From assembly GCA_004431415.1 (NCBI GenBank), contig QPMI01000621.1, forward strand, positions 124,001 through 188,000: a DNA stretch of 64,000 bases. Direction: 5' to 3'. The position numbers were made by a program, and so were the translations under genes. Origin of the DNA: Cyanophora paradoxa CCMP329. Lineage: Eukaryota; Plantae; Glaucophyta. Numbering within the stretch: the first letter of the stretch is position 1; every line of letters begins with the position of its first letter. The notes under the pieces are model-generated. The model was not told the DNA's origin. It was given only the letters and a program-made list of their open reading frames with translations, and made no database searches. Below, piece after piece: positions 1-59,832 of this stretch.

Positions 1-1
1 C

Positions 2-410
2 AAATCCTACTAATCCAGTCGGAGCACCGGGAACTGATCCAGGAACGTTAGTGCTTATGATTCTCTTACCGATTCTCGGTGCTCTTGGGCTTGTGCTTGC
101 ATACAAATTCCGAGCTTTATGTTGTGCTTGCATAGACAGAACCATTGCAGGAGCAGGTAATAAATACTCCACACCTGAGCTGAATGTGACCCAAACAGCC
201 GAAGGAGATGTGGGCTTAGAGGTGAGGTCAGCCGAGGGGCATGGTCTAAGTGTTGTGAGAACTGATCAACCACCAGCAAGTAGGGCAGCACCCAAAAAAT
301 CACGAGCACAAGAATTGGCAGAGCAAACGATGAACAATGATAGAGACTTTATGGCGGAAATGGCACAGCGAGAAGGGAGAATATATGAACATGTTCCAAA
401 TGTTATGTAA
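2..410 (+). CDS. C-terminal part of a viral single-pass membrane protein (5' partial)
   Basis: The frame is open from the window edge (NPTNPVGAPGTDPGTLV). It contains a hydrophobic helix LMILLPILGALGLVLAY, then KFRALCCAC and a tail ending IYEHVPNVM. Confidence 0.6.
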   Translation, partial: NPTNPVGAPGTDPGTLVLMILLPILGALGLVLAYKFRALCCACIDRTIAGAGNKYSTPELNVTQTAEGDVGLEVRSAEGHGLSVVRTDQPPASRAAPKKSRAQELAEQTMNNDRDFMAEMAQREGRIYEHVPNVM

Positions 411-1324
411 CAACCTTAATTTTTGTAGTATTCCATAATAGAGTATAATGACTGAACCCATAGTAGAAACGACAATAAAGAATGCTGTCTTGGATAATCA
501 ATTTTATATAACCCATGCCAATATACCCAGTGAATCCAATGACCTGATAGTAGATCTAAAAGGGTATGTGATGGGAGCTATGGCTTCCAATCTGTGGAAT
601 GACATTTTTGGTTACGAGTTTGGTCACATATATGACATAGCAAATGGGATTGGCTATGTGGATGCAATGGCAGGAACAGCCTTTCGAAATCTTAATTGCA
701 ACTGTGTGGGAGGGTGGATGTTTCAGATCTGTTCAAATGTCGATCCTACTATTGATCCAGCTACTGTGACCTTTGATTGCAATCTATTCGCCCCTAAAAC
801 CATTTTCTCCATCACTTGCAACCTTGTATGTTCAGATGTGCCCATTGTAGCACCTGTAATAGGTGCATCCAATATGTATATCCAAAGAAATCCGGTCGTC
901 CATACAGGTGCCGAATTTATATTGGGCGACAACACCCCAATCAGCCGCCTCGAATTACCCACGAATTTCACATTTAATCTCGTGGATGAGTTCCCTAACA
1001 GTCAAAGTCTCATGTATTTCACCTCTGAAAATCGCCTTTCGGGTGCATTCTCACCAATTGAGCTGTCTATACCAAAGCAAAAGGTGAGCTATAAGGAGCT
1101 TACAGATGTGCCGGCGGGATTCAGTGGGAAGTGGAGTGATATCATTCAGAAGCCGACTTGGAGTAGTGTAGCATACACAGGAAATTACTATGATCTTGTA
1201 AATCCTCCCGATTTCACAAGCTATATACCTCGTTGGATCGATCAAGGTGTAATTATATCAGAATCTACACTACCTTTCAATGGGACATGGGATAGATTAT
1301 TTACTAAACCGAATTTACATGCTG

Positions 1325-1608
1325 TTTTTTTTTTTGAGAGACTACGGTGGGGCGAACCCCCCGTAGGTAGTGATATTAAAGACAACAAAGCAATCACAAA
1401 TCAAAGATACAGTAAACTAGCACAAAATATATACAGAATCAAGAGGGATCACGAGAAGGGACACGATCAGAAGAACGCAAAAGATAAGGAGAACGAGCAC
1501 GAGGAGAAGGAGTAGAAGAGCTCAAGGGCGTCGATGCAAAAGTACTAGTCACACTAGAACGACGAGGAGCACGGGGACGCAGCAAATAAGGAGAACGAGC
1601 ACGAGGAA
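1325..1608 (-). mobile_element. 5'-truncated non-LTR retroelement 3' end inserted into the viral gene
   Basis: T11 tract at 1325-1335 (poly(A) on the minus strand), adjacent hairpin 1342-1366, purine-skewed body, and an internal 22-bp direct repeat (1484-1505, 1586-1607). It splits the repeat unit GCTGT^..CTACAAGTGG. No TSD is visible. Confidence 0.8.
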
Positions 1609-1807
1609 CTACAAGTGGAAATTATGATGATCTGATAAACACACCAAACCTACATGCTGTGGCTACAAGTGGAAATTATGATGATCTGATAAACACACCA
1701 AACCTACATGCTGTGGCTACAAGTGGAAATTATGATGATCTGATAAACACACCAAACCTACATGCTGTGGCTACAAGTGGAAATTATGATGACCTGATTA
1801 ACACACC
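1609..1807 (+). repeat. 54-bp coding tandem repeat, about 3.7 copies (NLHAVATSGNYDDLINTP)
   Basis: Near-perfect unit ctacaagtggaaattatgatgatctgataaacacaccaaacctacatgctgtgg. Confidence 0.95.
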
Positions 1808-2258
1808 TACTTCGCCACCTACTCACAATCACAGCATCGAGTTGCTCACGAATTTCGGTAGCTATGTAAATCCAAATGCATATGTGCAACAGGGGACAGC
1901 GGATGTAGTTATACCTAATCAAGTTTATACAGTAGGGCAAGTGTTTACAGCATCAGGAACCGTTACGTTTTCTACCCCATATTATAGTGATCCAATAGTT
2001 AATGCTACTCTCGAAAACAGTATTATTTTAACGAGTGTCGATTTCACCAATAGCATATATCTCTCTTCTGAATATCAGTTCGGGAATCGCATTGGGTTCA
2101 AAAATAAATTCACTTGGATTGCTATATTTACTTGTTATTCGGCGATCAATTATACGAATGTGCCTCAAAACGAAAGAACCCTTAAACTCCATTGGATTGC
2201 TGTCGGACCTCTCCAAAACAATAATATTCTCGCTTAATAAGTAAAGAACAATCAAAAG

Positions 2259-3275
2259 ATGTCGACTGTATTCACACCTGTGTTTTCCTTATCAGCCAGT
2301 GCTGTCCATAATGTTCAACACACAGTCTATGATTTATCTCCGAGCCACCCTTCGACTGAGACAGCGAAAACCGATTCTTTTAATGACCAAAGCATACTCA
2401 GAGTCAAAGAACTCAGAGCTGACAAGATTGATGGACTCGTTAAAGCTACTCAAATAATCGTATCTAATCGACCCGCAATCTCTTCGGGGCTGGTCACCAA
2501 AGAAAATCTATATGAAGGTCAACAGGATTCCAAAACGGCTTTTAATCCGGCTGATAGGAATTCGGCGGCTTTTCAAGTTTACAGTGGTGGGGCATGGATT
2601 GGGACTGGACTTGGAGTGAATGGGAATGCAACAGTGAGCGGGAATGCAACAGTTACTGGAAGCCTTACAGCTGGATCATTTGGGACAGTTAAAACGACGA
2701 CTATTGATTCTGGGGCAAATACAGAGTTGGTGATCAAGCGAAATAATGAGAATATCGCTTCTACTTTCACAGCATCACACACTAATGCAACAGGTGGGGC
2801 AGTTGCAGGAACTTATAGCTGGAAAGGTCTCACTATTAATGGGACTAATTCCTATCTTGCACTTCCTAATCATCCCCGGTTTTGTGTTGGTGTTTCTGGA
2901 ACTGTAACTGGTGCGGCTTATATTGGAGCCTATGGGCATACATTTCTAAACCATGGAAATCACGTAAATGTTTCCACAGGTTACTTCACAGCTCCTGTGT
3001 CAGGTCATTACAGATTCGTGTTCACTGGCGTAACAAGTCTAAATAATGTTGATACATATGTAGCATTTAGAGTCAATGATGGGCCTCCTAATGGTAAAAA
3101 TCTCGATGGTTATACATCAGCGTTAGGAACGAACTATCATAGAACTATATGCTTGAATGTCATTGTAGCAATGTATGCTGGTGACACAGGAAGGTTATAT
3201 GTTGGAGGAACAATTATGGGAGCTGTTGGAACAGCAAATTGTCAATGGTCGGGTGAATTAATTTCTGCTTCGTAA
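2259..3275 (+). CDS. Viral fibre/spike protein with C-terminal C1q domain
   Basis: Shaft-like GGAWIGTGLGVNGNATVSGNATVTGSL, then C1q signatures TGYFTAPVSGHYRF, MYAGDT and WSGELI. Confidence 0.8.
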   Translation: MSTVFTPVFSLSASAVHNVQHTVYDLSPSHPSTETAKTDSFNDQSILRVKELRADKIDGLVKATQIIVSNRPAISSGLVTKENLYEGQQDSKTAFNPADRNSAAFQVYSGGAWIGTGLGVNGNATVSGNATVTGSLTAGSFGTVKTTTIDSGANTELVIKRNNENIASTFTASHTNATGGAVAGTYSWKGLTINGTNSYLALPNHPRFCVGVSGTVTGAAYIGAYGHTFLNHGNHVNVSTGYFTAPVSGHYRFVFTGVTSLNNVDTYVAFRVNDGPPNGKNLDGYTSALGTNYHRTICLNVIVAMYAGDTGRLYVGGTIMGAVGTANCQWSGELISAS

Positions 3276-3283
3276 GTAAAAGA

Positions 3284-3547
3284 ATGTCGAACATCTACCA
3301 AGTGGTTCTAACTGATACTGAAAAACTGGGAATGGAATACTGTGCCTACTCTGTTCAGGATTGGATCGATAATGCGGCTCATAATAGGGCGAGAATCGCG
3401 ATTGATGAGATTGTGGACAAAGAAGTTAAATCGTGTATTGGTGCTGGAATTCCGATTCCACTCACAAAGGAAGCGATTGTAGAGCAAGCGTTTAATCGGG
3501 GGACTGTTCGAAAGGCAAGCGAAATTCCTGTGAGTGCTCCTATGTAA
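3284..3547 (+). CDS. Small phage-like protein, possible fibre assembly partner
   Basis: Starts 8 bp after the C1q gene. SVQDWIDNAAHNRARIAIDEIV resembles small genes that follow C1q fibres in aquatic phages (recalled similarity, not searched). Confidence 0.6.
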   Translation: MSNIYQVVLTDTEKLGMEYCAYSVQDWIDNAAHNRARIAIDEIVDKEVKSCIGAGIPIPLTKEAIVEQAFNRGTVRKASEIPVSAPM

Positions 3548-3746
3548 AGAAGGACTGGGTTTATTGTTATTTTTCATAGATCATGCATAAGAAAGGCATG
3601 TATCTTGCATAGTGGGCGGGGCGCGAGTGGTTCCAGTGCATTAAATGGAACATTTCGATTGAAGTCGCGAGTTTGTGCAGGTGGGCATTTTCGGCATGCT
3701 TGCTCATGCACATACTCGCTTTAAAAAATATAAAATGAAATTCGGT

Positions 3747-4070
3747 TTAACTCTTACGAGTTTTGCTATAACACTCTCGGCATTGATAGTTGAGACCATC
3801 CTTCGTTCTTTGTCTTTTATTAAACTCACTTGCAAGCTTCTCAATCTTGCAGTGCGAGCATATCTTCGATTGCACTTCGATTTTCGGACGCGTTTTTAAG
3901 ACATTGTGATACAGGTCAACGTGATAGTCACGGTCGCATTCGATGCATCGCGGATTTAATGTGACATTACCAGTTTTTAATTTACGCAAACCAAAACACG
4001 ATGCAGGTCTATCTACTTTGCAGATAGTGCATTGCTTACGTTTGGGTAGTGGGAGTTGATTGCTCGGCAT
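3747..4070 (-). CDS. Tandem zinc-ribbon (CxxC...CxxC x2) protein
   Basis: KQCTICK..F..RCIEC and KICSHCK..EF..QCREC, as in the N-termini of viral HNH-associated DNA-binding proteins. No nuclease domain is present. Confidence 0.7.
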   Translation of the reverse strand: MPSNQLPLPKRKQCTICKVDRPASCFGLRKLKTGNVTLNPRCIECDRDYHVDLYHNVLKTRPKIEVQSKICSHCKIEKLASEFNKRQRTKDGLNYQCRECYSKTRKS

Positions 4071-4221
4071 CTTTATAGCTTAATAGCGGGAAATCTTTAA
4101 GTGGGGATCAACGCATTTTTTATGGTGATTACAGCTATCGGTGGGGCTCACCTTGATTTTTCAATTTGGGTAACTGAAAACAGTTTGGAAACGATTGGGA
4201 ACATTTTGTAAAAATAAGGGT

Positions 4222-4428
4222 CTTACTGTCCTTACTGAGATATCGAGAGAGGGTTTTAGGGCTTACTGAGAATGGTAAGTAATTAGAAAAATGAAGAATG
4301 AAAGGGTTTCGTGATTGGTTCCAGTAAGGAGAGGTTAGATGTTTGAAAAATACAGTGCTATTTTATAATTTGTTACTGAGCCTTACTGAGAAATTTGAAA
4401 ATGGATAATGGGCTTACTGAGAATGGTA
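4222..4428. repeat. Sub-terminal CTTACTGAG repeats of the viral element
   Basis: Exact or single-mismatch copies at 4222, 4231, 4262, 4372, 4382 and 4413, and an inverted core at 4322. GGGCTTACTGAGAATGGTA is identical at 4259-4277 and 4410-4428. Confidence 0.85.
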
Positions 4429-4469
4429 GTGGGGAAGGAAAGAAGAGGGCGCGCAATTGGTGGGGTTCT

Positions 4470-7428
4470 CCTGGGAGCGAGCTCCAAGCCCGCGGCCTAC
4501 AAGGGCGCCGAAGGCTTCGGCGTCCCGCAGCACGCTGTAGGGGCCGAGCCTGAGGACCCCGACGTCCCGCTGGGCATCTTTAGGATGCAGCTGGGCCCGA
4601 CCGAGCGGGCCCTGCGCCAGCTCGCCAACTCCGCCGGCTTCCGCGCGGAAGCCCCGGCCGAGGGCGGCCGAGCCGCTAGGCGCCGAGCGCCCCGGGCGGC
4701 GCCTGCGAGCGCCCCCCCTGCCCCGATGGGCCGCTCCTCTTATGCAGAGGAGGAGTCGCGGCCCCCTGTGCCATCCAGTGCTCTCGAGGCCGAGCCCGAC
4801 GCCGGCGCCCCTGAAGCGCCCGCGCCCAAGCCTGAGGGTGAGGCTGGCGGTGCTGCGGAAACCGATTCCGACGCCGAGCCCCCGCCGCCAGAGCGCGCGC
4901 CGCGACGCCTGCCCCGCGAGCTCGCCAAGCTTGCTGCGTCGGCTGGGTTCGCCGAGGCCAAGGCCTCCGCCTCGGCTACTGACGCCGCCACGCGCAAGCG
5001 AGCGCGGGCCGCCCCAGAGCGCTTCGCGCCTCCCGCGCCGGAGTCGGCCTCGCCGCCCCCGAAGCGACGGGAACCGGGCCCGGCGCCCGCTGTCGAAGAG
5101 CGCGAGGCCCCCTCGGACGCAGAGATGCCCGACGCCCCTGAGGGCGACCTGGGCGCCCCGGCCGCGCTGCTAGAGGACGCTCACGCCGAGGCCGAGGCCT
5201 CGGGCGAGATCGATGACGAGTCGATGCCGGAAGGGCCTGGCCCCTCCGACGCCTGCGACGCTGACGGTTTCCCCCTCGCTCTCGCGGAGCGAGTACCGAA
5301 GCGCTCAGAAACCGGGCCCCGTCGGTGGGGCGCCAAGGGATTTGCTGAGCCGCGGCCCCTGCATCCCGACGCGCTCTTCCCTCGCGGCCCCGCCTTGAGG
5401 CGGCAGCCTCGAGATGAGTACAACACGCGCCACTGGCGCTCCCCGGTCGACCCCTCGGAACGGCCGGTGCCGATTCATATCGAGTGGGAGCCAGAGGACC
5501 CTGAGGGCGAGCCGCCTCCCGGGCCTCCGCGCCGGCGCTCGCTCTCCCCAGAGACTGCTCGCCACCAGATCCGCGTTCGGCCGGTCCCTCCGGACCCCAA
5601 GCCAGCGCCGCGGGCTCGAGGTCGCCCCTCTGCCCGCGGGCAGGTTTCCGACGACGCCGCCCCGCTCGAGCCCGAGACGGTCGCCGCCGAGGCCGCCGCC
5701 CCGCAGCGGTGGGTAGAACTCGACCCTAGAGGCCGGGACGTTCGCCCGCCGTGCAAGCCGGTCTTCGTGGACACCGTCCTCGATGCGTGGGCCTGCGGAC
5801 CCTCGCCAGCCGTCGACGGGGCGCTCCCCGACGCGCTGCGCCGTATGTTCCCGACCGAGAAGCGCGAGCGTCTGCTCGCCGCTCAGAAGGAGGATTCCTT
5901 CTGCAAGAAGCTTCTCGCCTTCCACGCAGAGGGCGAGAACCCAACTGTCTGCACCCGCGGCTCGAGGCGCGACGCAGACCCCTGCTCGCCCAGCTGCGCT
6001 CACTGCCTGCGGGCCAAGGAGCGCTTTGCACGCCTGGCCGGCGAGTTCAGCTTGGCCGACGACGGCGTCATCGAGCGCAACCCCTTGGTCCCAGCCGGCC
6101 GGTTTCTACCCGTCTTGCCGGACGCTTGGATCGACAGGGTGCTCTACGCCTATCACGAGGGCTGGGCCCATCGAGGCGCGCCCGTGATAGCCCGTCGGAT
6201 CGCCCTGCGGTTCTGGTGGCCTGGCATGTACGCCTCCATCGCTCGCTTTGTGCGGTCGTGCCCGCACTGCCAGTTCGCGAAGGCCGCGAAGCCCCGCCGT
6301 ACCGCCATTCAGGTGATACAGCCTTCGGGCAAGGGAGACCTGTGGCAGGTGGATATCTTCCACTTGGATATGCACGAAGACGGTTCGCGATACATCATCG
6401 CGTACGTCGACGCGTACACCAAGTTCTGCTATATCTACCCGCTCTCCCGTATCTCCGGCGAGGCCTTGCTCGCCACCGCGATCGACTTCTATATGCACGA
6501 GGGCGTGCCCGCGCGCATCCTTACGGACCGCGGGTCCCAACTCGTTGGAGGCGCGTGGAACGCGTTCTTCAAGGAGAAAGGCACCCGGTTCGTGCACGCG
6601 GCCGCCTACCACCACGCCTCGAACGGTGGCGCCGAGCGCCTGGGCGGAGTCTACAAGACTCTCGCTTACGCCATGTGCCGTGAGCACAAGCGGCCGCTCT
6701 CTGACTGGCCTCTCTACAATGCCGATATCGTTCTCGCGTTGCGGACCACCGTGCACTCCGCCACCGGGTTCTCCCCGATGGTCTTGCACCGCGGTTCTGA
6801 AGTGCACCTGCCCTGCGAAGTGCGCTTTGGAGCCGGCGTCCGCTTCGTGAACCCCGACCACACGCACCCAGCCGACTACCTTCTCGCGATGACGCGAGCC
6901 GCCGCGAGCGCTGATGCCGCCTCGCGCGAGTACCGTCGGTTCTATCGGAACCGCATGGTTGCTCGCACCGGCAACCCGCCTCATCGTCGCCGCTTTGAGG
7001 TTGGCGACAAGGTATTGTGCTGGATGGGCGAACACAACAAAGGGCTGTACAATTCGTGGGTCGGGCCCTACACCGTGACTGGTGTTAACCCTGGCGGTTA
7101 CACCTACACGGTCAAGGGATCGGCTAAGCCCTACTCCGCCAAGGACGACGCCCGTACCCGTCCTTTGCGCGAGACCGTTGCCCACATCGACTGCATGCTT
7201 CCGTTCCGCACGCGTCTCTCCGAGTCTCAAGCCCGTCCTCGCGTTGGTCGGCCTCGGAAGACCGCTGCGAACGCTGACGAGCCGGCGATCGATCCCGCAT
7301 CCGCGGACTCGCCCGCTCAAGAACAAAATCCACCTCTCGCCCCTGACGTCGGTGCCGAGGGCCCCGAGCGGGCTGCCGAGGGCGACGAGGTTGAGATGGA
7401 TGACGCGATTTTGGTCGACGACCTGTGA
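4470..7428 (+). CDS. Gypsy/Ty3-type retrotransposon pol C-terminal part: disordered linker plus integrase (5' interrupted)
   Basis: HHCC finger YHEGWAH..FWWPGM..CPHCQ, DDE triad WQVDIF / LTDRGSQ / NGGAERL, GPY module WVGPYTV, and AT-hook-like VGRPRK. Confidence 0.93.
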
Positions 7429-8121
7429 GATGCTTGTCCCGTTGCCGTCCCATTTGCGATCGCTGCGCCTGCGCCGTGGGGCAGATTTCTTTGCCCGCTT
7501 TGCCTCAGCTTTGGCTTCCGAGGTGGGACGTGGGTTGGCTGGTGGCCAATCACGGGGCGTCATCTGGGCCTTTCGTTCCATTTTCTGGGATCCGGGCCCG
7601 TCGCTCGTGGAGAGTGGCTGGGGTGTAGGCTTCCCGGGCACCTGCAGGCTCGTGAGGGGCTTGAGGTCGCCGGCTGGGAGTGCACTCAGTCGTGCCCTAT
7701 CCTTTCGTTGGGCCTGATGGGCGGCCCGGATACCTCCTCGCTGGTTTCTTCCCGAGGCGGTGAAACTTCCCATCCGTGCCACTCTCCTTCGGCTCTCGCC
7801 GTTGGAGCGAGTTTGGGCCAGCTTTTGGGGGGTTTCCGAGTTTTTATGCTTTTCCTTCTTTCGAGCTTGGCCTGGGGTTGCCTAGGTACATGCACTATGC
7901 TGGTATCGGCTCCTATTTCGGTCGCGAGCTATGCTACCTGGCATATCTGGTTGCTGATGACGGACATTCTACTTCGAGAGGAGTTCACTCGCCGCCGCCC
8001 TGTCGCTGCCGCGGTTGGTGCACACCCCGGCGGTGGGGTGGACGCCCCGTCGAGCATGCAGACTCGACGTTCGGCTTGGCGCGGTCCGGTGCGAGGACGC
8101 ACCGTATGCAGAGTGAGGAGT

Positions 8122-8397
8122 TGTCGCGTGCAGCGATTCCCTCGGATTAGGCTAGCCGGTAGTCTATGCGTAGCCGCTAGCCCTAGTCTAGTGCTATCGA
8201 GCGGCTAGCTCTAGCGCTCTCTGTATTCTGACTTAGCGCCGGGCGCGACTCCGTTTGGGGGTACGCGATCCCTGGACGGGTACACTTGTGAATAGACCAC
8301 TTGTGCTCCCAGCTACAGCCACAGCCCGTGCGTGACCGCACGGACGCTGCACCGGGTGGGAATCCTCTCATCCGACAGGGACAGAGGATAACTGACA
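8122..8397 (+). mobile_element. Putative 3' LTR of the Gypsy element
   Basis: Purine tract AGAGTGAGGAG (8110-8120) precedes TGTC...GACA inverted termini. LINE-type sequence begins right after 8397. The second LTR is not in the window. Confidence 0.45.
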
Positions 8398-10927
8398 CGA
8401 AGAAAAGCCAGAGCTAGAGATACCATCAATATCAGAAGGAATTACATCACTAAGAAGCGGGGGACAAAATTGAGAAAGATAAATAACAGGAAGAAGACAA
8501 GTAAGAGGAACAACAAGACGACATGGAGGCGGAGGCGAAGCAGGACGATGCGAAAGGGCAGAGCTACGGCACGAGGTCGAGGAGGACACAGGAGGCGGAG
8601 CAGGCGGATCAAGAGCAGGCAAAAGGACAGTCAAAGGAATCACTAAAGCCGGCCGGGGTCGAGGCGGGCAATCGATATCGAACTGCAAACGACGGCGAAC
8701 AACAGGTCGAGCACGAGGACTATAGCTAGTATTGAAACTAACTCTAGCATCAACACTACGATCAGAATCCGAACCAGACCGAACTAAACTAGAAGACGAA
8801 GAAGTACGCCGGCGCCGGCGGGATACGATCGCGACCAGCGAAGCAGAAGACGAAGGCAAAGGCGGCAGTCCGGTATCAAGAACAAAAGCCGGAGGGTCCG
8901 GCCCGGCAAACTGCCGGGGGGAAGTAGAAGGAGCCGCAGGCTCGGCAAGCCGGCGACGGGTACGACCACGAGTCCGGGAGGAGATCGGGGAAGCCGGTCC
9001 CGGAGCTGAGGGCCCAGGAGCAGAGCCAGGAGAAGGTAAGCCCGGCGAGAAATCTGACCCGGAGCCGGAACCCAGCGAACGACGACGACGAAGAGGCCCC
9101 CGAGGAGCCACAACGGGGGAGCTACCGAGCAAAGTACTGACAGCCGGCGCCGAACACGGCGGCGGAGGTACCCCGCAGACAGTGGCAGGCGGAGAGTCCA
9201 GGGTCGATCGAGAGATCCGCCGACGGGAATGCGGCGGGGGCCGACGAGACGGAAGAGGCGAGGAGGGGGCCGAGGAAGGGTCGGAGGCAGGGGAAGGGCC
9301 GCGAGCAGGTGACGGGGATCGCTGCCGGCGCCGAAGAGAGGGCAGCGAAGTAGGAGAAAGGTCGGGTGGCGCCGGATCAGATGACACGGAGGTCATGGCC
9401 ATGGGCGGCGCAGAGAGAGACGAGCTCGAGGGCGCAAGGGCCCGACGAGGGCGCCGGCGGCGAATCTCACGAGCGCCAGGAAGCGGGACAGGACCCGCAG
9501 ATGGGACCCGAGGCGCCGAAGGGGGGGCAGGGAGCCGGAATGACGGGGAGACCGAAAAGAGGACAGTCTCGCCAACACTCGGAAGCGGGGCAGAGGCCGA
9601 GGACCCGTGGAATTATCTGGTTATCGCGAACGGGGAAGGCAACAAAAGTACCACTTGGGCCTCGAAGGAGAGCAAACGAGGCGTCCGGTCCGGACCACCA
9701 GAGATGCTGAGGCGGCGGTGCAGGGGCCTCGAGAACCTGGCGCCAAGTAGCCGGGAGCGCAGAGCACAGACTAGGGAAAAAGGAGTGGAGGGCGGAGGAG
9801 GCAGCTGCTGGAGCCCGGAACCCCCGGGCAGCACAATCCCAGATATCGCAGACCCGCAGCAAGCCGGACCGTGCACAGCGACTCCAGTCGACCTCGTCGC
9901 CGGGAGTACTGAACAGAGGATTGAAGAAAAGAGGTTGGGATAACACTTCGGGAGAGTTACGAGGTTGACACACGCCCTGGCGCTGAGCCCACTCGGAGAG
10001 AGTCTGCTTCCAAATAGGAGGCAAGTCAAGTCTGTCAAGTGGGAGGCGGAGCGAGACAAGGGCGGGGCCATAGGAAAAAGGTGCCAGCTGAGCGTCCAGT
10101 TTGCTCAAGAGGTACTCCTTCCAAGGAGCCGAACAAGAGGGGTCAGCGAGCAAGGCCACCCACTTCATTTTCAGCGATAACGAAAAAGCTCGAATATCCG
10201 GGCAGTTGAGACCACCTTGACGCCACGGCAGAGGAGAAATATACTTCGAAAGCTGCCCGCTCACGCCAGCAAAAGTGCGAAGCTTCTCTTGCCATGTCGA
10301 ATACTGAGCATCAGGGGGTCAAGCAAATATAGAGCATAATGTAGGGACCCAATAAATACAGCCCAGGCAAGGAGAACGCCGGAACGCATCGGCATGCGAT
10401 AAGTCTTCGCTTGCTGGACACGGATATCAAGAGCAGCGTTCTTTTTCCGCCAGAACCGAGACAGATCGGGCTCTAGTGGAAAGCCCAGGTATTTTCGAAT
10501 TTTTTCAGCGGGAGGGAGATCCGTCACCTGAAGACGCCGCCAGGGGCAGTCCTCGACGCTAGGCCAGGCATGTGCGGGGATATCGCGGAGTGGAAGAAGG
10601 CTAGATTTCTCGAGATTAATAAGAGCTCCAGAGAGCCGGCAGTATTTATCAAAGCACTCTTTCCAGAAAGGCAATTCGGTAAAAGTCGAGATTAAAGGAA
10701 CAGTGTCGTCTGCAAACTGGAGCACCTTGCAAAGAGAGCTAGAGGACAAGCGGACACCTCGTATACGAGCATCAGCATTAATCAAAAGGGCTAAAAGGTG
10801 TGTGCACAAATTATATAGATAGGGCGAAAGGGGGCCACCCTGACGTACACCGCATCGAATGGGGAAAGGGGCGGAGGTCCAGCCGTTAATGTGAACAGAA
10901 CCCTGCAGATCAGAGTAGAGCAGGCCA
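8398..10927 (-). mobile_element. Decayed, 5'-truncated L1/Tx1-type LINE (reverse transcriptase, frameshifted)
   Basis: GVRQGGPLSPYLY, QFADDT, INLEKS and KYLG motifs, then a frameshift near 10290 to LPWRQGGLNCPD..KMKW..WKEYL. A pyrimidine-rich 3' region follows, with no poly(A) before the LTR. Confidence 0.88.
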
Positions 10928-11509
10928 CTTAATGGACGGACCGTCGGACCGACTCGGACGTGCATAATGGACGCGGCAAAACCGGTATATGCATGAGCAC
11001 GGCCCTGGCCGGCCGCGCCTGCATGCACTCGCGATCGCCCTACCCGTGATCATGAGCAGCCGAGTCGGTCGACATCACTATCAGGCCCGGCCTTCCGCAG
11101 GCATTCGATCGAATTCGCAGATCGGAGCTGCTGACTACGATTATTAAGAACATGAACGGAACAGGGACACTGCTGTCGCAGTGGCCCTGTTGGAGGGAAG
11201 GACCTCTAAGTTCCGAGCCGGAACGGGCATGTTTAGCTATTTAGGTTACAATTACGAATTAGAGTCTGGATCACAGCAGACTGCGCCTGGCCCAGTGGCC
11301 CTGTGCAAGTGCGCCAAGTGCGGGCCGCGGGTGCAAGGGGGGGTACTTGTACACATTGCAGAGTACTTGAGGGGGGGGGGGGGGGGGGGCAGAAAGGCGA
11401 GGCGGGCGGGCGGGCGAGGCGGGCGGGATGGCGAGGCGGGCGGGTGCACGTGGGGTGGCGAGGCGGGCGGCGGCGGCGGCGGGCGGGAAAGCGGCGGCGG
11501 GAAGAGAGA

Positions 11510-12000
11510 CAGGTGGCGCCGGGCCCTGCGCATAGCCTGCACATACGCAGAGCCGAGGCGTCAGCTCGCCCCGGACAGAGGCGAGCGGGGGCGGGGCCCA
11601 GCGGGGACGGCCGGGTCACGTGCGCAGCAGCAGCGGAGGGGCGAACCTGGAGTCGACGAAGCTGAAGCATCCGGCGGGCGGCGAATTCGAAGCTGAAGTA
11701 GCCGGCGGGGCGGCGGGCGAGGAAGCGGGAGGGGCGGCAGGTGGCGCCGGGCCCTGCACATAGCCTGCGCAAGGCCGAGGCGTCAGCTCGCGCCAGACAT
11801 GCTGTACAGCGGCGGCGCGGGGGCGGGGCCCAGCGGCAGCAGCCGGGTGAGATGCGTAGCATGCGCAGCAGCGGCGGGGCGAACCTGGAGTCGACGAACC
11901 TGACGCAGTGGGCGGCGGCGGGCGGGGAATTCGATCGAAGCGGGTGGAGCGGCAGAGCCGAGGCGTCAGCGCGCCCTGGAGAGCGGCGCGCGGCGCGGGG
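11510..12000. repeat. Degenerate tandem repeat of about 228 bp (about 2.3 copies)
   Basis: caggtggcgccgggccctgc..gccgaggcgtcagc..ggggcgaacctggagtcgacgaa recurs at 11510 and 11738, with a partial third copy near 11953. Confidence 0.8.
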
Positions 12001-13135
12001 TCGAAGCCCAGCCCGGCGCGGCGTGATAGGGGCAGCTGCGAATACTGCGACGCCGCCTCCATCTGCTACGGCGCGGGTCGCTGGCCGCGCGCGCGCGGGT
12101 CAAGACACGCGTGCGTGCGCGTGCGTGCGTGCTCGAGGCACTTGAAGGGCTAGACAACGCCGAGCAGGAGTCTAGATCTGCTTGAACCGGAGTCCATCAG
12201 AAACCGAGCTCGAGAGGCCACAGCCGGGCGCGCACCGGAATGTGGCGTACGCGTCGCGGGCGCGCGAAGTGCTTGCAGCAGCGTGTGCGTTTGCAGCCCG
12301 GTCAGAGCACGGATGCGGCAAGATCTGCACCCGACCGATGATGTCAGAGCCGTCGGCGTCTCTGCATGTCCAGCGCGGGATTGCAGGGTGGCGCGCGAGC
12401 ACACCTTTCGTCTCGAAAGAGTGTGGCATGTTTGAAGGGATCGCAATCGCCGACCTCGGATCTGCGGGCGGCGGCCGGGGCGCTGCAAGGTTGCGAGCAC
12501 AGGCTGAACTCGGTTTCTTCAACTCCGCGCGCTGGGCCGAGATCACGCCCGCCGCGACGCGCCATGCTGAAGCTGGCGTTGTACCCAGCAAAAGCCGAAT
12601 TTCTCAGGAGCGCTTTTTTCCGGCGTCCGGTACAACAGGTACTTGAGGCGGCCTAGCGGGCCACCCTGTGCTCCTCCGGTCTCAGCATGTATGAGATGAA
12701 TTGTCGGGCTCATCACGCGCATGCAGGCGCACTTGGACCGGCAGATATACCGCCACTTGGTGAGGCGCTAGATTGCATTTTGTGAAAATGTGTTATTGCC
12801 CATTCCTGGTCGACCCGACGGGACCAGGATCTCCCGGAACATGTTTCCGGACTTCTAGGGGCATGCTTTGCTAGGAACCGGCGAGAAACCTTGGGTTTTG
12901 GGAGGTCGGGACATTTCATTTCGGCCTAGGTTGGGCACCCGAACACCCCCAAGTGGGGGAAGGGGAAGGGGGTCCTTCCCCAATCAAGGCTTCGCTTCAG
13001 AACAAGCTTAGCTGAGAGCTCGAGCTCGAGGGCTCGGGCTTCACCGCGCCAGGAAGAGGCCCTACGGCTACCCTACGGCTATCTAGAGAGCTAGAGTTAG
13101 CCTGGCAGGCTTCTTCACCGCGTCAGGCAGCAGCG

Positions 13136-14211
13136 CTAGTACATGGCGGCGATCTCAGGGCAGCAGAAGGCGTCGATCTCCACCAGCCGGGCCGCCCGCT
13201 CCCCCTCCCCGAAGAGCGAGTCCGCCCCGTCCGACCGCCGCGCGTACGAGAGCCCCAGCCGCGACCTGCCCGCCCGCTTAGAAGGAGGGGGAGGAGGGGA
13301 GGGAGAGGGGGAGGGGGGGTACTGCACCTGGCCTCCCTCAGGTCGCCGAACGCCAGGGTCCCCACCTCGGGGCCGGTGAAGCCGCCTGTGGGGTACAGCT
13401 TCGAGAGCGGCGGAGGGGTACGAGGGCCGGAGGGGGCTACCCATGACGGGGCTCAGTGGGGGGCCTATCACCAGGCCATCCGCGCCGAAATGCGGCCCGC
13501 CTGCTGGCAACTGTCAGGGGCACGATAGAAATGGAGAGGGGCTCCGGAGCGGGGAGGTAAAGGGGGAGGGGGAGGGGCTCGCTCGCCTCGGGCGTAGTCG
13601 AAAATGGCGGCACCCGGCCCGCCGACTTTCGGCAGCTGGATTCCCGTGCCCCGCTCAGAGGGGGGAGGGGGGGACGGGCGTGAGGGGGGTACGGAACCTT
13701 CTCCGGCTCTGCCGCCCCTTCGGGCCACCAGAACAGGAAGGCGTCGGGGGTCTGCGAGGGGCGCCGGGTCGGGTGGGCCAATCGGGAGAGGCCCCCCCCC
13801 CCGGGAGCCGAGCGCACGTCCGCGTAATCGTCGGTGGACTGCCAGCCCTTGGGGTTGAACGCGCCGAAGCTGCGCCCGCCACTCAGTGGGGGGCCGGGCC
13901 GGGGCGGGGGGGAGGGGAGAGGAGGGGGGTACCGCACCGTGCGCCCTTGCGGGTCTTCCCGACGATGACGACGGGGCCCTGTAAAAACATGCCATCACGA
14001 GGGCTGTTGGGCGAGGCGCCCCGGTCGGGCGCGTCGCGGGGGCACCTTGAAGTCGACGCGGAGGTGGAAGTCCAGCGCGTCGTACCCGTCCTTGGCCGCG
14101 CTGTAGCAGCAGCGTAGGGTGCGCCCCTCCAAGAACGTCGCCGCCAGGAGCGACGGCCCGAACGGGACCGGCACCTGCGCGCGGCGGCGGGCTCAGCGCC
14201 GCGCGCGCGCA

Positions 14212-14249
<38 letters not shown>

Positions 14250-14674
14250 GGGAGGGAGCGGCTCACGTCGTCGTGGTACTTTGATACGCGGTTCCTGAAC
14301 GTGTCCTCCTCGTCGCCTGGCATCGGCGGCGGCGCGGGGGCCTCCTCCCGCGCCCCCGCCGCGTCCTTCTTCTTCCCCCCGAAGAGGCCGTCGAAGATAG
14401 ACGCCCGCGGCGGAGTCGAAGCCGGCGCGTCGAGGCGCGTGCAGCCGGCGGAGCTTCGCAGCGCTCCCCCGCGCGCGGCGCCGGTACGCCAGCGCCGCAG
14501 CTGACCGGAGGCGGCGGCGGGCCTAGCAAGAGGGGCGCCCGCGCCGGCGCGCCCGCGCGGCGTCGCTGGGAGCACGAAGGTCGCCGGTAACGACAGGGGA
14601 ACGAGGCAGCCGCTGAAGGCGGCCGCGGCCGCCGGCGACGGCCGCGGGTCGGCCGTCGACGTTCTTCGATGCAT
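13136..14674 (-). CDS. Plastid-targeted TLDc-domain protein (multi-exon)
   Basis: Transit-peptide-like N-terminus. Exons give DGYDALDFH, FGAFNPKGWQSTDDY, DAFLFWWP, LPKVGGPGAAIFDYAR, GPHFGADGLVIGPP, SRLGLSYA and FCCPEIAAMY, matching the plant/algal chloroplast TLDc family. Confidence 0.88.
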
Positions 14675-15094
14675 GCCCGCACGCCCGCTTGTCCTCAGCT
14701 CGCTCTAACAAATGTTCGGCGCAGCTGCCTTCGTAGCTGTCGTAACTGCCTGTCCGGCAACGCCAAATAACACTTCGTTCGCACCTCCGAAACGACTGCA
14801 GCGCGCGGGTACGGTGCTCCAGCTGCTGCAGTCTATAGCTAGCGGCAGCTCTAGGGCGATGCGGCAGGTCGACGAATCGATGCGCCTCCTTATAATTAGC
14901 GTACACCCGGACCTTCGGGCGCTTGATCATGAATAGATGCAGCTGGGCGCTTCCCTCGACTCGGCGACGCGCACTGCCTTTGCCACACTACCCATACAAG
15001 TATTGAAGCTAGAGCGCAGATCGATCTAGAGCGGGCCCTCCGCGCCCCTCCCCCCGCGCCTTCAAGGCTTCGTACGCGTCGGATTCGAAGCCGC

Positions 15095-15335
15095 CCCGCC
15101 CGGGGGCGATCGCGAGCCGCCGGCGCGCGCTCGGCGGGCGCTTCTGCGCCCCGCGCGCACCGGATCTGGAGAGAGCAGGGGCTGAGGCGGAGGCGCGCCG
15201 GCGCCCCGGCGGCGCGGCGACGGCCGGCGCGCGCGGCGACGGCGACGTCGACGGCGACGGCGCCGGCGACGCGGCGGACGGGACCGGCGCCGCCCCGCCG
15301 CCCCGCTCCTCGCTCTCCGATCCTCGAGCTCCTCA
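15095..15335 (-). pseudogene. Decayed duplicate of the SNM1 last exon
   Basis: Collinear with 23430-23635 (gcgagccgccggcgc, cggcgggcgcttct, gcggacgggac, ccccgccgccccgctcctcgctctcc). Confidence 0.75.
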
Positions 15336-15737
15336 AGGGGCCGGCCGCGGTAGGTATTAATGGCACGGTAGGTATTAATGGTATACGTAGGTATTAATAC
15401 TAGGGGCCCGGCCGCGATTTTCGCGCCAGGGGTGCAAGGGGGGAACCGGGATCTAATGATCATGAAAGAGTCGTAGTGGCACGAACATGCACGGGGCAGA
15501 TCTAGATCGACCCCGGCCCAGCGCGCGCGGCAGGTTGAAGTGTAAAGATAGATACAGATTATATATGATTGAAAGAAATAGAAAAGACCCATTCAGACGC
15601 TGCGATCAAACCGAATAAAGAAAAGGCTCAATGAAAGGCCAGATTCAGCGCACTGTAGAAGAAAAATTGTTCTGGAGCGAAAAAAAGCTGCGCATCAACT
15701 GTGTTCGCACGGCCTACCGCTAACCCTGAACAGCTGG

Positions 15738-16310
15738 CTAAAAGATGATGGTGCTGTCTGCAGAGGGCTCGCCGTAAACATAGGCGATCCAGGCCTTCTG
15801 GAGGGGGTCGGTGCGGAAGTCGGCCATGCGGGTGAGCGGCAGCCAGCGCCGCCGGTCCTGAAGAGATCCCTCCTGCGAGAGCATGGTGAGGCGGCCCGCC
15901 GCCTCGAGCGCCTGCAGAGCCACGCGGCTGGCGCGCTGCTCGCTCCCGCCGCGCATCTGGTAGACAAGGTCTTGAATTTCGATATCCGCGAGGCCGGCGT
16001 CACGGAGGCGCTTGAGGACTCCCATGTGGAGGTCCTCGATCGCAGGCCTGCAGTAGCAATCATGAACAGAGGTCAGCTAAGGGCGGTCCACTTTTTTGAA
16101 TCGTTGCGCATTCGACAAAGCGAACTACGAAGCGATCCTGCCGTGCAGCCGCGAGTGCTTCGACGGTCGCTAACGCGAAGGCGACGGCTTGCTTGCGCGT
16201 GGGGGGAAGCCAGCGCGGTCGGGGAGCTCGCGGACGAGGATGAGCAGCGGCTTCTCAGCCGGTCCGAGCACGGACACGAGACCGCCGACGTCGGGGGCCG
16301 CTTCTGACGG
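15738..16310 (-). CDS. Hypothetical protein (probably two or more exons)
   Basis: Protein-like frames GGLVSVLGPAEKPLLILVRELP and GVLKRLRDAGLADIEIQDLVYQMRGG. No family recognised. Confidence 0.35.
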
Positions 16311-20690: not shown

Positions 20691-21199
20691 CCTCATGAAC
20701 CCTTCCCGCACCCCGGGCCCCAGGGGCCACGTCCGACCGGCCCCCTGCCGCCAGGGCCGCTCCGTCTTCCATTGCACCCACCGCCCCGGCCCCGGCCGCG
20801 GATAGCGCACCTCATGATCAGCCGGCGACTGGACCGGAGCGGCGCATTCGCGGATCCGGATCCCGGAGCATGCGCAGACAGCGGCTACGGACGTCGACGA
20901 GGCGAACGGGGCAAAGATCCTGCGTGCCCTCGCTAGCGCTGCGGCCCTCCTCGCCCTGTACATGTGCCGCCCCGGCCGTCCCTGACCCGCCCTCTTTGAT
21001 TGTCATCATGATCAGTGGCGGGTCGCGGGCGGCCGCGGGGCTGGCCATGGTCAAGGGGCGAGGCGCGGGTCGAGGCGTGCAGCGAGCCACTCGTCGGCGA
21101 TTCGGATCGTGAGAAGACGCTGCAGCCTGCTGCAGCATGCATATGAGCCGCGCGCGCCCATGCCAGCACGCGGGCGCCGACGGGGGTCTGAATTGCGGA

Positions 21200-21985
21200 C
21201 CGCTGGCGGCGGTCGGCGGGGGTGCCCGAGAGGGTCCCGTCGCGGGGCGAGCGGCGGTGCCAGCGCAGCTGGCGGCGGACCTGCGCATGCGGGGCGTGGG
21301 ACAGGGCGGGCAAGGCGCGGGGCGGGGGCGGACCTCGGCGTCGGAGAGGGCGTCGACGGCGGCGGAGTCGGTGAGCATGCCGCGCGGCGCCCCGGCCTCG
21401 TAGCGCTCGCCGCGCCCCTGCAGCCACTCGCGCAGCCGCCGCGGGAGGCCGACGCGAGCGAGGGCAGGGCAGCCAGACGCGGCGAGCGCCCGCACGTCGT
21501 CAATGGAGGCGGGGGTATCCTCCAGCCGCAGCTCCTCCAGCCGTGCCGCCCCTGCGCTTGCCGCCCCCGGGCCCGCCCACATCGATCCCGATATCGATGC
21601 AGCGTGACCGCGGCTGCAGCTGCACGCGCACCGCGCAGTGGCGAGAGGGACGTGACCCCGGTGCCGACAAGGTCGAGCGATGTGAGGGCGGGGAGGCCTG
21701 CAGAGCCGCGCGCGGGGGGCCCGGGGTGAGGAAGAGGGTGATCATGACCGGTACAGGCGCCGGGGCCGGGGGGCGGGTGGCGGGCACGGGCGAGAGGCGC
21801 GAGGGCCGGCGACTCGAGCAGCGGGTTGCCTCGGAGAGAAAGAGAGCGAAGGCGGAGGAGGGCCGCCGGCAAGCCAGGGGGTAGATCGATGAGGGAGTTG
21901 CGCGCGAGGGAGAGCCTCTCGAGGGCCGCCCCGAGCCGCAGCACCCCCTCCGGCACCGACTGGAGCCCGCAGCCATCCAGATGCA
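21200..21985 (-). CDS. Leucine-rich-repeat protein fragment (possibly pseudogene)
   Basis: LERLSLARNSL, LRSLSLRGNPL, LTSLDLVGTGV and LEELRLEDTP in successive exon-like segments. Confidence 0.6.
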
Positions 21986-22719
21986 GTACTAGAGACCCTG
22001 TTCGCCTTGGTTCTGCAGCTGCCGCACCGGCCCGCTTCAGCTACGTATACCCTAATAATATTACTGTTGCAACCGCGTGCGGTTGGGCGGTTGCGGTTCG
22101 CGCGGGCTGGCGCTCACCTGCGAGCGCGGCCAGCCTCTGAACCAGCTGCGACTTGTTTGTCTGACCGGAGAGGTCAACCTCCTTGACGACAGGGGCCGCG
22201 CCGGCCGTATTTCTCGTCTCGGCCGCGTCGTGCGCAGATCTGATCGCCCTCCGAAGTGAGTTGCGCGAGGCCCCGCGCCGTAGGTGGAGGATCGGAATGA
22301 GCTCGAAACGCTGATTTAGATGACGTACGTATACGCGAGATCTCCCCCGCCATCCGCCCTAGCTCGCTTGGACGGCCGAAGCACAGTGGCAAGGTGCTCG
22401 AGCTCGGGCCGGACGCTTGCCTCGCTCGAGCTCGAACTGCTTTCGCTAGACTGTGCGACACTGAATCAGCTCACGAGGGAGCCGCGCGCGGCCGGGGCCG
22501 GCCAATTACGCACCATGGTCGTTCGATTCGCACCCGTACCCCTTCCGCACTGCGGACCGCACTGCGAGGGCGCTGATCATGAGCAAGCGTTTACTTCTGA
22601 AGTCGACGCGTACGCCTACCCCGATTGCAGAGCGCTTTGCGCAGCTGCGCGCTGGCGTCGGATCCGGTGCGGGCGCCGGCGCGCGCCGGCGTCGGCGCCA
22701 GCCGGCGCCCAGGCTCCCG

Positions 22720-28560: not shown

Positions 28561-31500
28561 TCAGGGGTACGGGCGGCGCCCGGCGAGGAGCCTGTCGATG
28601 GGGTCCCGGGCCCGCTGGAGGTCCTCCGGGGACTCGAACTCGCTCACGTTCGCGACGTTGATCCGGACCGAGACCTCGGGCCCCAGGCGCGCGAGGACCT
28701 GGGGGGAGGAAGGGTGAGGGGGGCCGAGAAGGTGTGGGGCGGGAGGGGGTACCTCGAAGGGGCGGAGGGCGGAGCGGGAGTAGGGCTCGAGGGTGACGGC
28801 GACGTAGAGGCGGCGGAGGGCGGGGAGGGCGGCGATCGCCTCCGCCTCGGCGACGGAGAGGGGCGCGCCGGCCTCCTCCTCCTCGGCGTCCAGGGGCCGC
28901 CCGAGGCGCAGGTCGAGCTCGGTGAGGGCGCGACGTCCTCCTCGGCGCAGGAGCCCGACGACGTCCTCCGGGCTCGCCTCGCGCGCTGCCGAAGCTCAGC
29001 TGAAGCTCAGCTGAAGCTCAGCTGAGGGCCGAGCGCGCACCGTTGAGCTCGAGGCGGAGGGCGGAGAGGTTTGGGGGGCACGAGAGGGCCTCGGCGAGGG
29101 CGGGGAGGAGCGCCGCGTTGGGGCCGGCCGCGTCGCTCCCCTCCACCCGCAGGACCAGCTCCCTGGCGCGATTGAATCTTAGATAAGCTTCAAGAGTTCT
29201 CTTAGGTTCTGGGCGGGGGTGATCCTGAGAACACGATGATCTCTTAGGTTTCCGAGTTATAATTAGATCTTGAATCTTAGATAAGACCTGGGCCTGGGCA
29301 CAAGTCTTAGGTGCCTTAGGACCAGCTCCCTGGCGCGAGTCTTAGCTATAGAGAGGGTTCTGCGCTTGTCTGGGATCTCTGTAAATGTAAGATTCTAAGT
29401 TCTAGATTTGTGCAGCTGTCAGATTCGGGGTTCCACATTTCTTTCAGATTTCTCTTAGGTTCCGGGCGTAAGATTCCTCTTAGGATCTGGGGGGGTGGGG
29501 GTACCGGAGGCTGGAGGCGCCGCGGCCCAGGGCCAGCACCGCCACCGGCGCCGTCCGGTCCGCCCGGATCTGGAGAAGCCCGAGTCAGAGAGCGGGGCCG
29601 TTACCGGTATTTATAATGAAATTTAACGGAAAGTGGAGCCTCACAGCGGAGCACGAATATTAGTCAGAGAGCGGGGCCAGATCCGGAATCTGAACAGCGC
29701 AAGGCCCAATCTGAGATCTAGCGGAAAGAGACCTAAACCTTAACAACGGAAGTCCTTCTCTTAAATCTAACCGAACGCGGGGCCGGAATCTATAACTAAA
29801 CAACGCAAGTCCTTCTCTTAAATCCAACGGCGGGCGCGCACGGGGAGCGGGGCGAGGCGCTCGAGGCGGGGCATCTAACGGAGAGAAAGGCCCTGGGGCC
29901 TCTGTAGCTAGAATCTTCAAGGCTTACGGAGATCTAATAAGAAATCTAACGGAAAGAACCTCTTATATAGGTAGATCTTATATACAGGGCGCACGCTCTC
30001 TTATTATAAAATTAAGAGGGCGCGCACGCAGAGGGGCCCGAGGGACTCGAGGCGGGGCATGCGCCCGAGGGCGGCGAGGGCGGCGTCCGAGAGCTCGACG
30101 CCCGCGAAGTGGCGGAGGTGGGGCCGCAGCGCCGCCGCGTCCACCTCCGCGAGCCGCGCGAGCTCGTCCGACCTGAAGAGGGGGCGGATGAGGGCCGGCC
30201 GCGGGGCGGAGGAGGCTAGTCTGGGCGGAGGAGGCTGGCAGAGGAGGCGCGCCGGGGCGGGGCGCGAGAGAGGGGGTGGAAGAGAGGCAGAGGAGGCTGC
30301 GCTGGGCTGGGCTGGGCCTCGAGCTCGCTCGCTCACCCGAGCTCGGCCTCGTTAGTTTGGGGCTAGTCTGGAGGAGGGCCAGGGCCCGGGCGGAGGAGGC
30401 TAGTCTGGGCTGGGCTGGGCCGGGCGGGGCCTCGCTCGCTCACCCGAGCTCGGCCTCGTTAGTCTGGGGCTAGTCTGGAGGAGGGCCGGGGCCGGGGCGG
30501 AGGAGGCTAGTCTGGGCTGGCCAGGCTGGTCGGGGCGGGGCCTCGCTCACCCGAGCTCGGCCTCGTTAGTCTGGGGCTAGTCTGGAGGAGGCCTAGGGCT
30601 GGGGCCCGGGTGGAGGAGGCTAGTCTGGGCTGGGCTGGGCCGGGCGGGGCCTCGCTCGCTCACCCGAGCTCGGCCTCGTTAGTCTGGGGCTAGTCTGGAG
30701 GAGGGCCGGGGCCGGGGCGGAGGAGGCTAGTCTGGGCTGGCCAGGCTGGGCTGGGCCGGGCGGGGCCTCGCTCACCTGAGCTTGGCCTCGTTGAGGAAGA
30801 GGAGGCGGCGGAGGCTGCGGCCGGCGGGCCCGGCGGCGAGGGCCGCGACGCCCTCGGAGACCTCGCCCCGCTGGCAGCGGAAGGCGAGGGCCAGGCGCTC
30901 GAGCCGCGCCAGGGGGGCGAGCGCCGCCAGCGCCGCCGACTCGGAGCCGTCCTTGGGGCGGAGGCCGAGGCTGCGGAGCAGCGGGCAGGCGGCGGCGATG
31001 GCGGTGGCGACCTCCGGCGGCATGCCGTTGTCGAGGGCCGGGAAGCATAGGGAGAGGGAGCGAAGGCCGCCGAAGGGAGCGAGGGCGGCCCGCAGCTCGG
31101 CGGCCGGGGGCGGCAGTATGATCGAGAGGGGCGACCGCCGCGCGTTGGCGAGGCTGAGGTGGAGCCCCTCGAGCGGGGCGGGCGCGCCCTCGGCCTCGGG
31201 CTCCGTATCCTGAGGGCGGAGCGCCCCAAGCGCTCCGAGCAGGTACGCGGACAGGAAATCGGGGCCGTACCCCTCCGCGAATCCGTGCTCGTCCATGTAC
31301 TCCGGCCCGAGCACTCGGACCACCACTTCCCGCAGCAGCGGCGCCGTCGCCGGCGCCGGCGCGGCGGCCGGCGCCGCTCCGCGCGATCCGCCGGCTGCAG
31401 CGCTGCGGCTGCGGCTCCGGGCGAACGCCGCGAGGAGACGGCAGGCCGCCGCCAGCTCGCGCCAGTCCGGGCCGAGCACGACGCCGGCGCCCCCGCCGAG

Positions 31501-59472: not shown

Positions 59473-59832
59473 CTGTAGGAATGCTTAAATTGCCGCGTAG
59501 TTAAATTGCCGAATTCGACCAAAACTGGAATTGCCGTGGCGATAAATTGCGGGCTAGGAAAGTACCTACCCCACAAGCGCAGTGGTATAAGGTCGTGCTA
59601 CGACCTCCCGGATTCCCGGGTTCGGTTCCTGCTGTTTCCGCTACGTTGTACTTCGAATCCCTGTGATTCCCGATACCGTGACTTGTATCCTCGTTGTGTA
59701 CTACGAGTGGGCACGCCCACCGTAGATCTTTAAAAAAAAAAACAAGCAATTGCCGTAATGCTAAATTGCCGAATTCGGCCTCTCGGCAATTTACGGCAAT
59801 TCAAAACATCGGCTAAAAAAGCATTCCTACAG
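59473..59832. mobile_element. Inner MITE (Tc1/mariner type)
   Basis: Perfect 14-bp TIR CTGTAGGAATGCTT / AAGCATTCCTACAG, TA duplication, and many AATTGCCG sub-terminal repeats in both orientations. Confidence 0.88.
59568..59742 (+). mobile_element. tRNA-derived SINE
   Basis: A-box-like AGCGCAGTGG, B-box-like GGTTCGGTTCC, 3' hairpin 59701-59725 and an A11 tail. Confidence 0.75.

Follow-up and report, generated by a model that had tools for sequence, protein, structure and literature searches.

The first 4,482 nucleotides of a 64,000-nucleotide window of genomic DNA (contig QPMI01000621.1; the window is the whole stretch analysed, and all positions refer to it) are one terminus of a multi-copy element integrated in a eukaryotic genome. 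We read this block as the right end of a likely endogenous Polinton-like virus (PLV) that sits in a host retrotransposon and carries fibre genes with likely copy-variable tips, and we assign this reading a probability of roughly 0.7. An initial annotation of the window, made from the letters of the DNA, had proposed one end of an integrated provirus-like element. That proposal is borne out by a fixed end shared between copies, by unlike flanking sequences, and by the many contigs of the element found in public runs.

Copies of the element were compared in contigs from six public runs of one organism, with four runs used per analysis. Of 24 listed runs, 14, all from organism A, contain half or more of the sampled words of the block; one of these may be the source of the window itself, and no RNA run is listed among them. 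Between 864 and 1655 contigs per run align over positions 1–8000, with 30/30 bins covered and many variants present (four runs). We inspected the terminus at 4340–4600 in four runs, two of them new, and saw 24 of the 32 loose ends there. Among those listed, contigs leave the window sequence at 4482 in 4/4 runs (2–4 contigs each), the letters past 4482 disagree among copies (agreement 0.49–0.68), and further departures occur at 4483 and 4484. Contigs of the retrotransposon extend into GC-rich DNA before 4483 in 4/4 runs, with the pol gene uninterrupted. Because the flanks behind 4482 are unlike and the retrotransposon contigs run on before 4483, the element ends at 4482; this is the terminus of the element family, the copies of which are inserted in different flanks. 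The sharp junction with GC-rich host retrotransposon DNA that had been described is real, and its boundary is 4482. The position originally given, 4469, was dropped, as other copies stop at 4482.

The block closes with a non-coding end (4071–4482, no strand assigned; delimited by contig ends and a repeat count) that bears CTTACTG repeats and is a candidate terminal inverted repeat. CTTACTG occurs six times in 4222–4419 and nowhere else in the window, in agreement with the repeat-bearing non-coding end of the initial annotation, and the count by itself is within chance (reached in 11/100 shuffles). The terminus finishes with a 4-nucleotide (nt) tandem repeat (4475–4482). One variant end departs after 4465, yet has the same final six letters at the place of 4482 (read by eye), and these last six letters are all that it retains of the repeat-bearing close. 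The short terminal repeats of protein-primed genomes end in a similar way.

The gene interrupted by this copy is a Gypsy-type pol gene, the 3′ part of which (4483–7428, plus strand) encodes a zinc finger and an rve integrase (Pfam, E 1.5e-13 and 4e-12). This rve integrase is part of the GC-rich target retrotransposon and not of the AT-rich element. A 1006-amino-acid (aa) open reading frame (ORF) starting from the ATG at 4408 was rejected as a gene model, its first 25 codons lying inside the element.

The block differs from its surroundings in composition, with a GC content of 0.43 (1–1325) and 0.41 (1609–4469) against 0.70 (4470–7428) and 0.66 beyond, and third-codon GC of 0.30–0.42 in its ORFs against 0.79 in the next ORF downstream. 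With an inserted retroelement in ORF2 excluded (see below), 84% of the block is coding, in five packed ORFs with no introns apparent. These values uphold the earlier description of an AT-rich, intronless, ORF-packed block. Many integration sites in a eukaryotic genome and a GC content below that of the host are both PLV traits, and the element shows both. The window also carries kinesin, leucine-rich repeat (LRR) and retroelement sequences (a scan of 83 of the 104 long frames gave matches in 3), and the long interspersed element (LINE), LRR and kinesin pieces that lie beyond the Gypsy element indicate a eukaryotic host.

Residence of the block in the host nucleus is further supported by a host retroelement within it. 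At 1326–1608 (minus strand), sequence and contig joints delimit the 3′ end of a retroelement of the type without long terminal repeats (non-LTR), with a pyrimidine-rich tail, a terminal hairpin and poly(A). The insert bin is by far the deepest of all, at 17,000–105,000 (four runs), and other copies of the insert extend 139–189 letters beyond 1613, with loose ends there in 3/4 runs. Since those copies continue, the insert is a 3′ fragment, cut short on its 5′ side, of a longer host non-LTR element of very high copy number, and it breaks ORF2 in this copy. Insert-free copies of the block are marked by the joints 1326→1611 (X1) and 1326→1761 (X6 and X7; short side 20 letters). The poly(A) retroelement with a host-like tail hairpin that had been noted earlier is accordingly real and missing from other copies, and it is not a whole short interspersed element. 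Its hairpin resembles one at about 59700–59742, with a score, poly(A) left aside, that is reached by 0.07% of 8670 host windows. No target-site duplication was seen flanking 1326–1608; several non-LTR families integrate without one. Assignment of the insert to the LINE family of the tail at 8300–9000 was not adopted (score 88, shuffle maximum 83, n = 200). The only further low-GC island in the window (58983–59742, GC 0.45) combines internal repeats with a short poly(A) element, the hairpin of which is like that of the insert.

ORF3 (2259–3275, plus strand; 338 aa) comprises, by Pfam and Foldseek, an N-terminal domain (N-domain, aa 1–139), a short shaft and a C1q head (approximately aa 205–338). 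The head scores 27.1 bits against the Pfam family C1q (PF00386; curated cut-off 23.7) and is also backed by a profile search. In the PDB the top Foldseek matches of ORF3 were C1q domains, obtained with a low-confidence model (mean predicted local distance difference test score, pLDDT, of 41). With the head above the Pfam cut-off and C1q folds leading the structure search, the early identification of a C1q fibre gene stands.

The N-domain of ORF3 has five relatives among 1.84 billion representative proteins (P0050, P0051, P0052, P0054 and P0063) and no Pfam match, and it was absent from the 83 phage and viral loci examined. The sole named relative that combines the N-domain with a C1q domain is a predicted protein of Cyanophora paradoxa (P0052), 32% identical to ORF3. 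Atlas matches of P0050, a homologue of the N-domain, were all at or below 0.80. Across the five relatives the N-domain carries varied C-termini: C1q-type in three, an unrelated domain in P0063 and none in the 136-aa P0050.

Directly downstream, ORF4 (3284–3547, plus strand; 87 aa) is, from its relatives and gene order, a partner gene of the C1q fibre and a predicted fibre-assembly factor. ORF4 has 49 relatives at 45–64% identity and none in the PDB. We examined 78 viral loci with ORF4 relatives (the best of 109 matches; 5 of the 78 lack an upstream ORF) and called C1q-type C-termini with our own profile, built from the matches of the ORF3 search (thresholds 1e-3 and 1e-5). The ORF immediately before the ORF4 relative has a C1q-type C-terminus in 59/73 loci (39/48 distinct), compared with 117/969 ORFs overall. 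When 14 of these pair loci were scanned in part (49 ORFs), 5 held terminase, portal, major head, head-tail adaptor or sheath genes, and tail proteins were found in 4 further loci. Given this enrichment and the phage structural genes nearby, the C1q gene and its ORF4-type partner are a real tailed-phage module, as the suggestion of a phage-style attachment pair had it, and the 87-aa proteins are an unnamed, widespread phage family tied to C1q fibres.

The function of ORF4 as an assembly factor is predicted from gene order. Modelling of a complex of three C1q heads with three ORF4 chains, computed with alignments not used, gave scores of 0.38, 0.10 and 0.12 against a mark of 0.34, which speak neither for nor against the complex. 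A quick tree of ORF4 and 51 relatives placed it on a long branch and is silent on the direction of transfer. In 14 of the viral loci (L001–L009, L014, L018, L053, L057 and L072) the ORF4 relative is immediately preceded not by a C1q gene but by a small ORF of 112–140 aa, the C-terminus of which may resemble tail-assembly-chaperone or XkdW-type proteins.

The ORF3 tip of the window is common to few copies. Summed contig depth is 104–520 at 2938–3204, within the C1q head, versus 2219–13385 and 2894–16044 in the neighbouring bins, where depth is not equivalent to copy number and overlapping contigs inflate variable bins. Among the joints seen (15 of 28), 2744→3318 connects aa 162 of ORF3 to aa 12 of ORF4 in 4/4 runs (short side 64–66 letters), and 2885→3274 omits exactly the C1q head in 3/4 runs. 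Two X1 contigs have about 250 other letters ahead of ORF4, and one joint falls within the head of ORF2 in 1/4 runs. ORF3 tips thus likely differ between genome copies, with a constant N-domain and partner and alternative heads. A tip piece spanning 2735–3225/3302 has 0 differences to the window in 4/4 runs, and the region 3874–4163 has 20 differences in 291 letters (7%) to the nearest listed contig; an identical tip next to a 7%-different region suggests that copies are mosaic.

Upstream of ORF3, ORF2 (448–2237, plus strand) is a fibre-like gene, broken by the insert, with a beta-rich N-domain (aa 1–210), tail-fibre repeats and a C-terminal head, as laid out from repeat matches. Its 18-aa repeats match the tail fibre of Ralstonia phage phiRSL1 (E 2e-13; 60% over 70 aa) and phrog_17509 (E 3e-11), and the repeats before the insert likewise match tail fibre. 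They are encoded in part by a 54-nt tandem repeat found by repeat scan (1609–1807, plus strand; 3.7 copies, 98% matches). Of the penton-fibre that the initial annotation saw in ORF2, the fibre part is thus supported by phage tail-fibre repeats. The penton part, which would be a single jelly-roll minor capsid protein, corresponds to aa 1–210; this stretch, with a possibly penton-like motif, gave no match in Pfam, PHROGs, NCBIfam, the PDB or the protein collection, and the searches neither supported nor refuted the penton reading. An H-lectin or gp53-like assignment of the ORF2 head, likewise prompted by a motif, found no match in the searches. Word-indexed protein searches with ORF3 and with the first piece of ORF2 (targets of 0.55–1.75 times the query length) returned none, and relatives of ORF3, of the ORF2 N-domain and head, and of the terminal motif were absent from the viral contigs, metagenome contigs and prokaryote genomes searched.

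ORF1 (1–410, plus strand; open at its 5′ end) encodes the last 135 aa of what is predicted to be a single-pass membrane protein, found as an ORF and by hydropathy. A hydrophobic segment with a Kyte-Doolittle 19-mer peak of 2.64 agrees with the membrane-protein gene noted at the outset; a cysteine cluster and a Tyr-x-x-Val motif at the tail end accompany it, and no family match was found in Pfam, PHROGs or NCBIfam.

ORF5 (3747–4070, minus strand; 107 aa) consists of Cys-rich repeats (PHROGs, E 4e-12 to 3e-9) and resembles the N-terminal part of phage endonuclease VII/HNH proteins, which binds zinc; a catalytic domain was not seen, and the search with ORF5 gave two weak loci. The slot that holds ORF5 (3629–4083) varies among copies, with loose ends behind 3628–3629 in 3/4 runs and a joint 3911→4083 in 3/4.

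Several observations weigh against the PLV reading. No capsid, ATPase, polymerase or integrase gene lies within 1–4482, the element extending past position 1. The N-domain of ORF2 has no relatives, and its single-sequence model, with a pLDDT of 29, is unusable. The exact junction of the window is bridged by 0 of 32 listed pieces (of 116) in four runs, and depth at 4493–4564 is fully accounted for in 4/4 runs by two other retrotransposon contigs, whose depths add up to it exactly. As for the tips, the joints 2885→3274, 2890→2985 and 1910→2178 rest on 24–27 letters on the short side, the contigs are unphased and give the two sides of each joint but not the letters in between, and exchange of tips is something we infer; part of the pattern could come from fast divergence or deletion. 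Finally, giant viruses have C1q-tipped proteins as well, and the virus group therefore cannot be read from the fibre. The junction itself counts as unconfirmed rather than refuted, as contigs lose rare variants and the window may come from another strain. Searches for particular genes in 1–4482 found no A32/FtsK ATPase (Pfam, PHROGs and NCBIfam) and, among the ORFs, no terminase, portal or HK97 capsid (PHROGs).

The alternative that survives best, though we consider it unlikely, is that the block is the end of some other integrating DNA virus with the same fibre module, such as a virophage of the mavirus/Sputnik type, a Maverick/Polinton proper or a small relative of the giant viruses. PLV core genes are not known to include one for a membrane protein, a point that counts for such a virus, and the viral fold search with ORF3 was led by predicted C1q proteins of giant viruses (pandoraviruses, klosneuviruses and pithoviruses). 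Low GC, fixed ends and multiple insertions are common to all these viruses (PMC8547959; bioRxiv 10.1101/2022.07.28.501842). Phage-like fibres, by contrast, are reported mainly for PLVs (PMC12220804), and a small integrating element would explain many copies ending at one base better than insertion of a giant virus would.

It is improbable that the block belongs to a large non-viral DNA transposon, or to a capsid-less virus derivative, that captured phage-like adhesion genes. The visible part, being a terminus, multi-copy and furnished with cargo-like genes but no capsid gene, is what such an element would offer; against this, the two genes of fibre type, the partner gene known from phages, the dense packing and third-codon GC of 0.30–0.42 would amount to virion-type cargo, from which a transposon would gain little. 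That the block is phage contamination, or was fused to host DNA by a faulty assembly, is very improbable: the nearest relatives of ORF4 and of the C1q head are in phage contigs and the window junction is not seen among the listed contig pieces of four runs, but the join falls at the exact base where other copies end, a place that a chimera would be unlikely to hit, 14 runs of one organism contain the block in many variants, a host retroelement lies inside it, and the viral, metagenome and prokaryote collections searched contain no close relatives.

If the element is an endogenous PLV, ORF2 and ORF3 would form trimeric fibres with their N-domains docking to the capsid of a small icosahedral virus, and the C-terminal heads would bind a receptor on the surface of either the host cell or a helper giant virus. 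Folding or assembly of the C1q fibre would be assisted by ORF4 in the manner of tail-fibre chaperones. The C1q head and ORF4 may have been acquired as a pair from a tailed phage and added to an N-domain specific to the virus, and recombination between copies would exchange the tips. A later insertion of the host poly(A) retroelement disrupted ORF2 in this copy. A tentative and, in our estimate, doubtful extension is that the host genome serves as a library of interchangeable tips for one endogenous virus family, in which a phage-derived C1q-plus-chaperone cassette and alternative heads would be recombined onto constant capsid-docking domains (one perhaps a penton-fibre fusion) to give switchable targeting.

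Low-GC insertions of 15–30 kb with PLV capsid genes are common across protists, and 366 capsid-gene matches are reported for C. paradoxa in a supplement (PMC10120064); with C. paradoxa as the host, the element family would probably be among the insertions counted there. PLVs carry phage-like fibres, some beside a tail-assembly-chaperone gene, as well as nested retroelements, and one C. paradoxa PLV has a PTR-PTR-H_lectin fibre (PMC12220804). The block is like endogenous protist PLVs in being low in GC and gene-dense, with a fixed end, many copies and phage-like fibres (PMC10120064; PMC12220804), and also in having a fibre gene beside a small partner (there PTR or S74 with Phage_tail_APC) and a host retroelement that breaks a fibre gene (PMC12220804). 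It differs in sitting in an LTR retrotransposon and in that no capsid or ATPase gene is seen in the part within the window. A C1q head with an 87-aa partner family is not in the available portion of the PLV fibre inventory of PMC12220804, and 'C1q' has 0 matches in two supplements.

Gezel-14T (PgVV-14T) is likewise a PLV with phage fibre-like proteins and inferred independent attachment, with low-GC integrated relatives in a GC-rich alga (bioRxiv 10.1101/2022.07.28.501842); its fibre differs in being described as T4 gp36- or T5 pb1-like, the comparison with the block being one of descriptions. The endogenous mavirus-like elements (EMALEs) of Cafeteria, virophages with Ngaro retrotransposons, share an AT-rich composition in a GC-rich genome, invasion by retroelements and the lack of a fixed target sequence (PMC8547959), whereas in the block a truncated element of the non-LTR type is the invader. 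Aquatic tailed phages (for example Synechococcus phage S-SRM01 and Limnohabitans phage DC33) have the same gene order, with a partner at 45–59% identity, and in S-SRM01 the C1q-partner pair lies among tail-fibre and endosialidase genes; a C1q tail protein has also been noted in cyanophage S-B05 (PMC7824862). In contrast to these phages, the head here is borne on an N-domain absent from the 83 loci and the element is integrated in a eukaryote.

As a provirus, the element is of an expected kind; what is likely new is the C1q-plus-partner cassette on an uncharacterised N-domain, together with the likely tip variation. No report of such a cassette, or of tip variation among endogenous PLV copies, was found in a literature search that covered subscription papers and supplements only slightly, and the words 'C1q', 'fiber' and 'Cyanophora' do not occur in the available text of bioRxiv 10.64898/2026.06.19.733378. 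This fibre bears on how PLVs recognise a host or helper virus. Short and bounded, it joins a constant N-domain to a C1q tip, has a conserved partner and is probably present in several versions within one genome, which makes it a tractable system for tip binding and exchange. The C1q head and ORF4 mark a likely transfer of a two-gene cassette from phage to eukaryotic virus. A tip library, if real, would let the virus change which host cells or helper giant viruses it targets, much as tail-fibre exchange does for phages.

Beyond the Gypsy element the window continues with a LINE-type element (8370–11050, minus strand; reverse transcriptase match to Pfam RVT_1, E 5e-11) and host gene pieces with leucine-rich repeats (21054–22040, minus strand) and a partial kinesin motor domain (53604–54176, minus strand). 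No tRNA was found in the 64-kb window. A tandem repeat with a unit of 107 nt is present in 4.7 copies at 30286–30792. The motif GTAAA(A)GAA has three occurrences in the whole window (2241–2248, 3276–3284 and 3544–3551), all of them in the block and at or just behind the stops of ORF2, ORF3 and ORF4; it is possibly a transcription signal, the pattern having been picked post hoc and its count lying within chance (9/100 shuffles).

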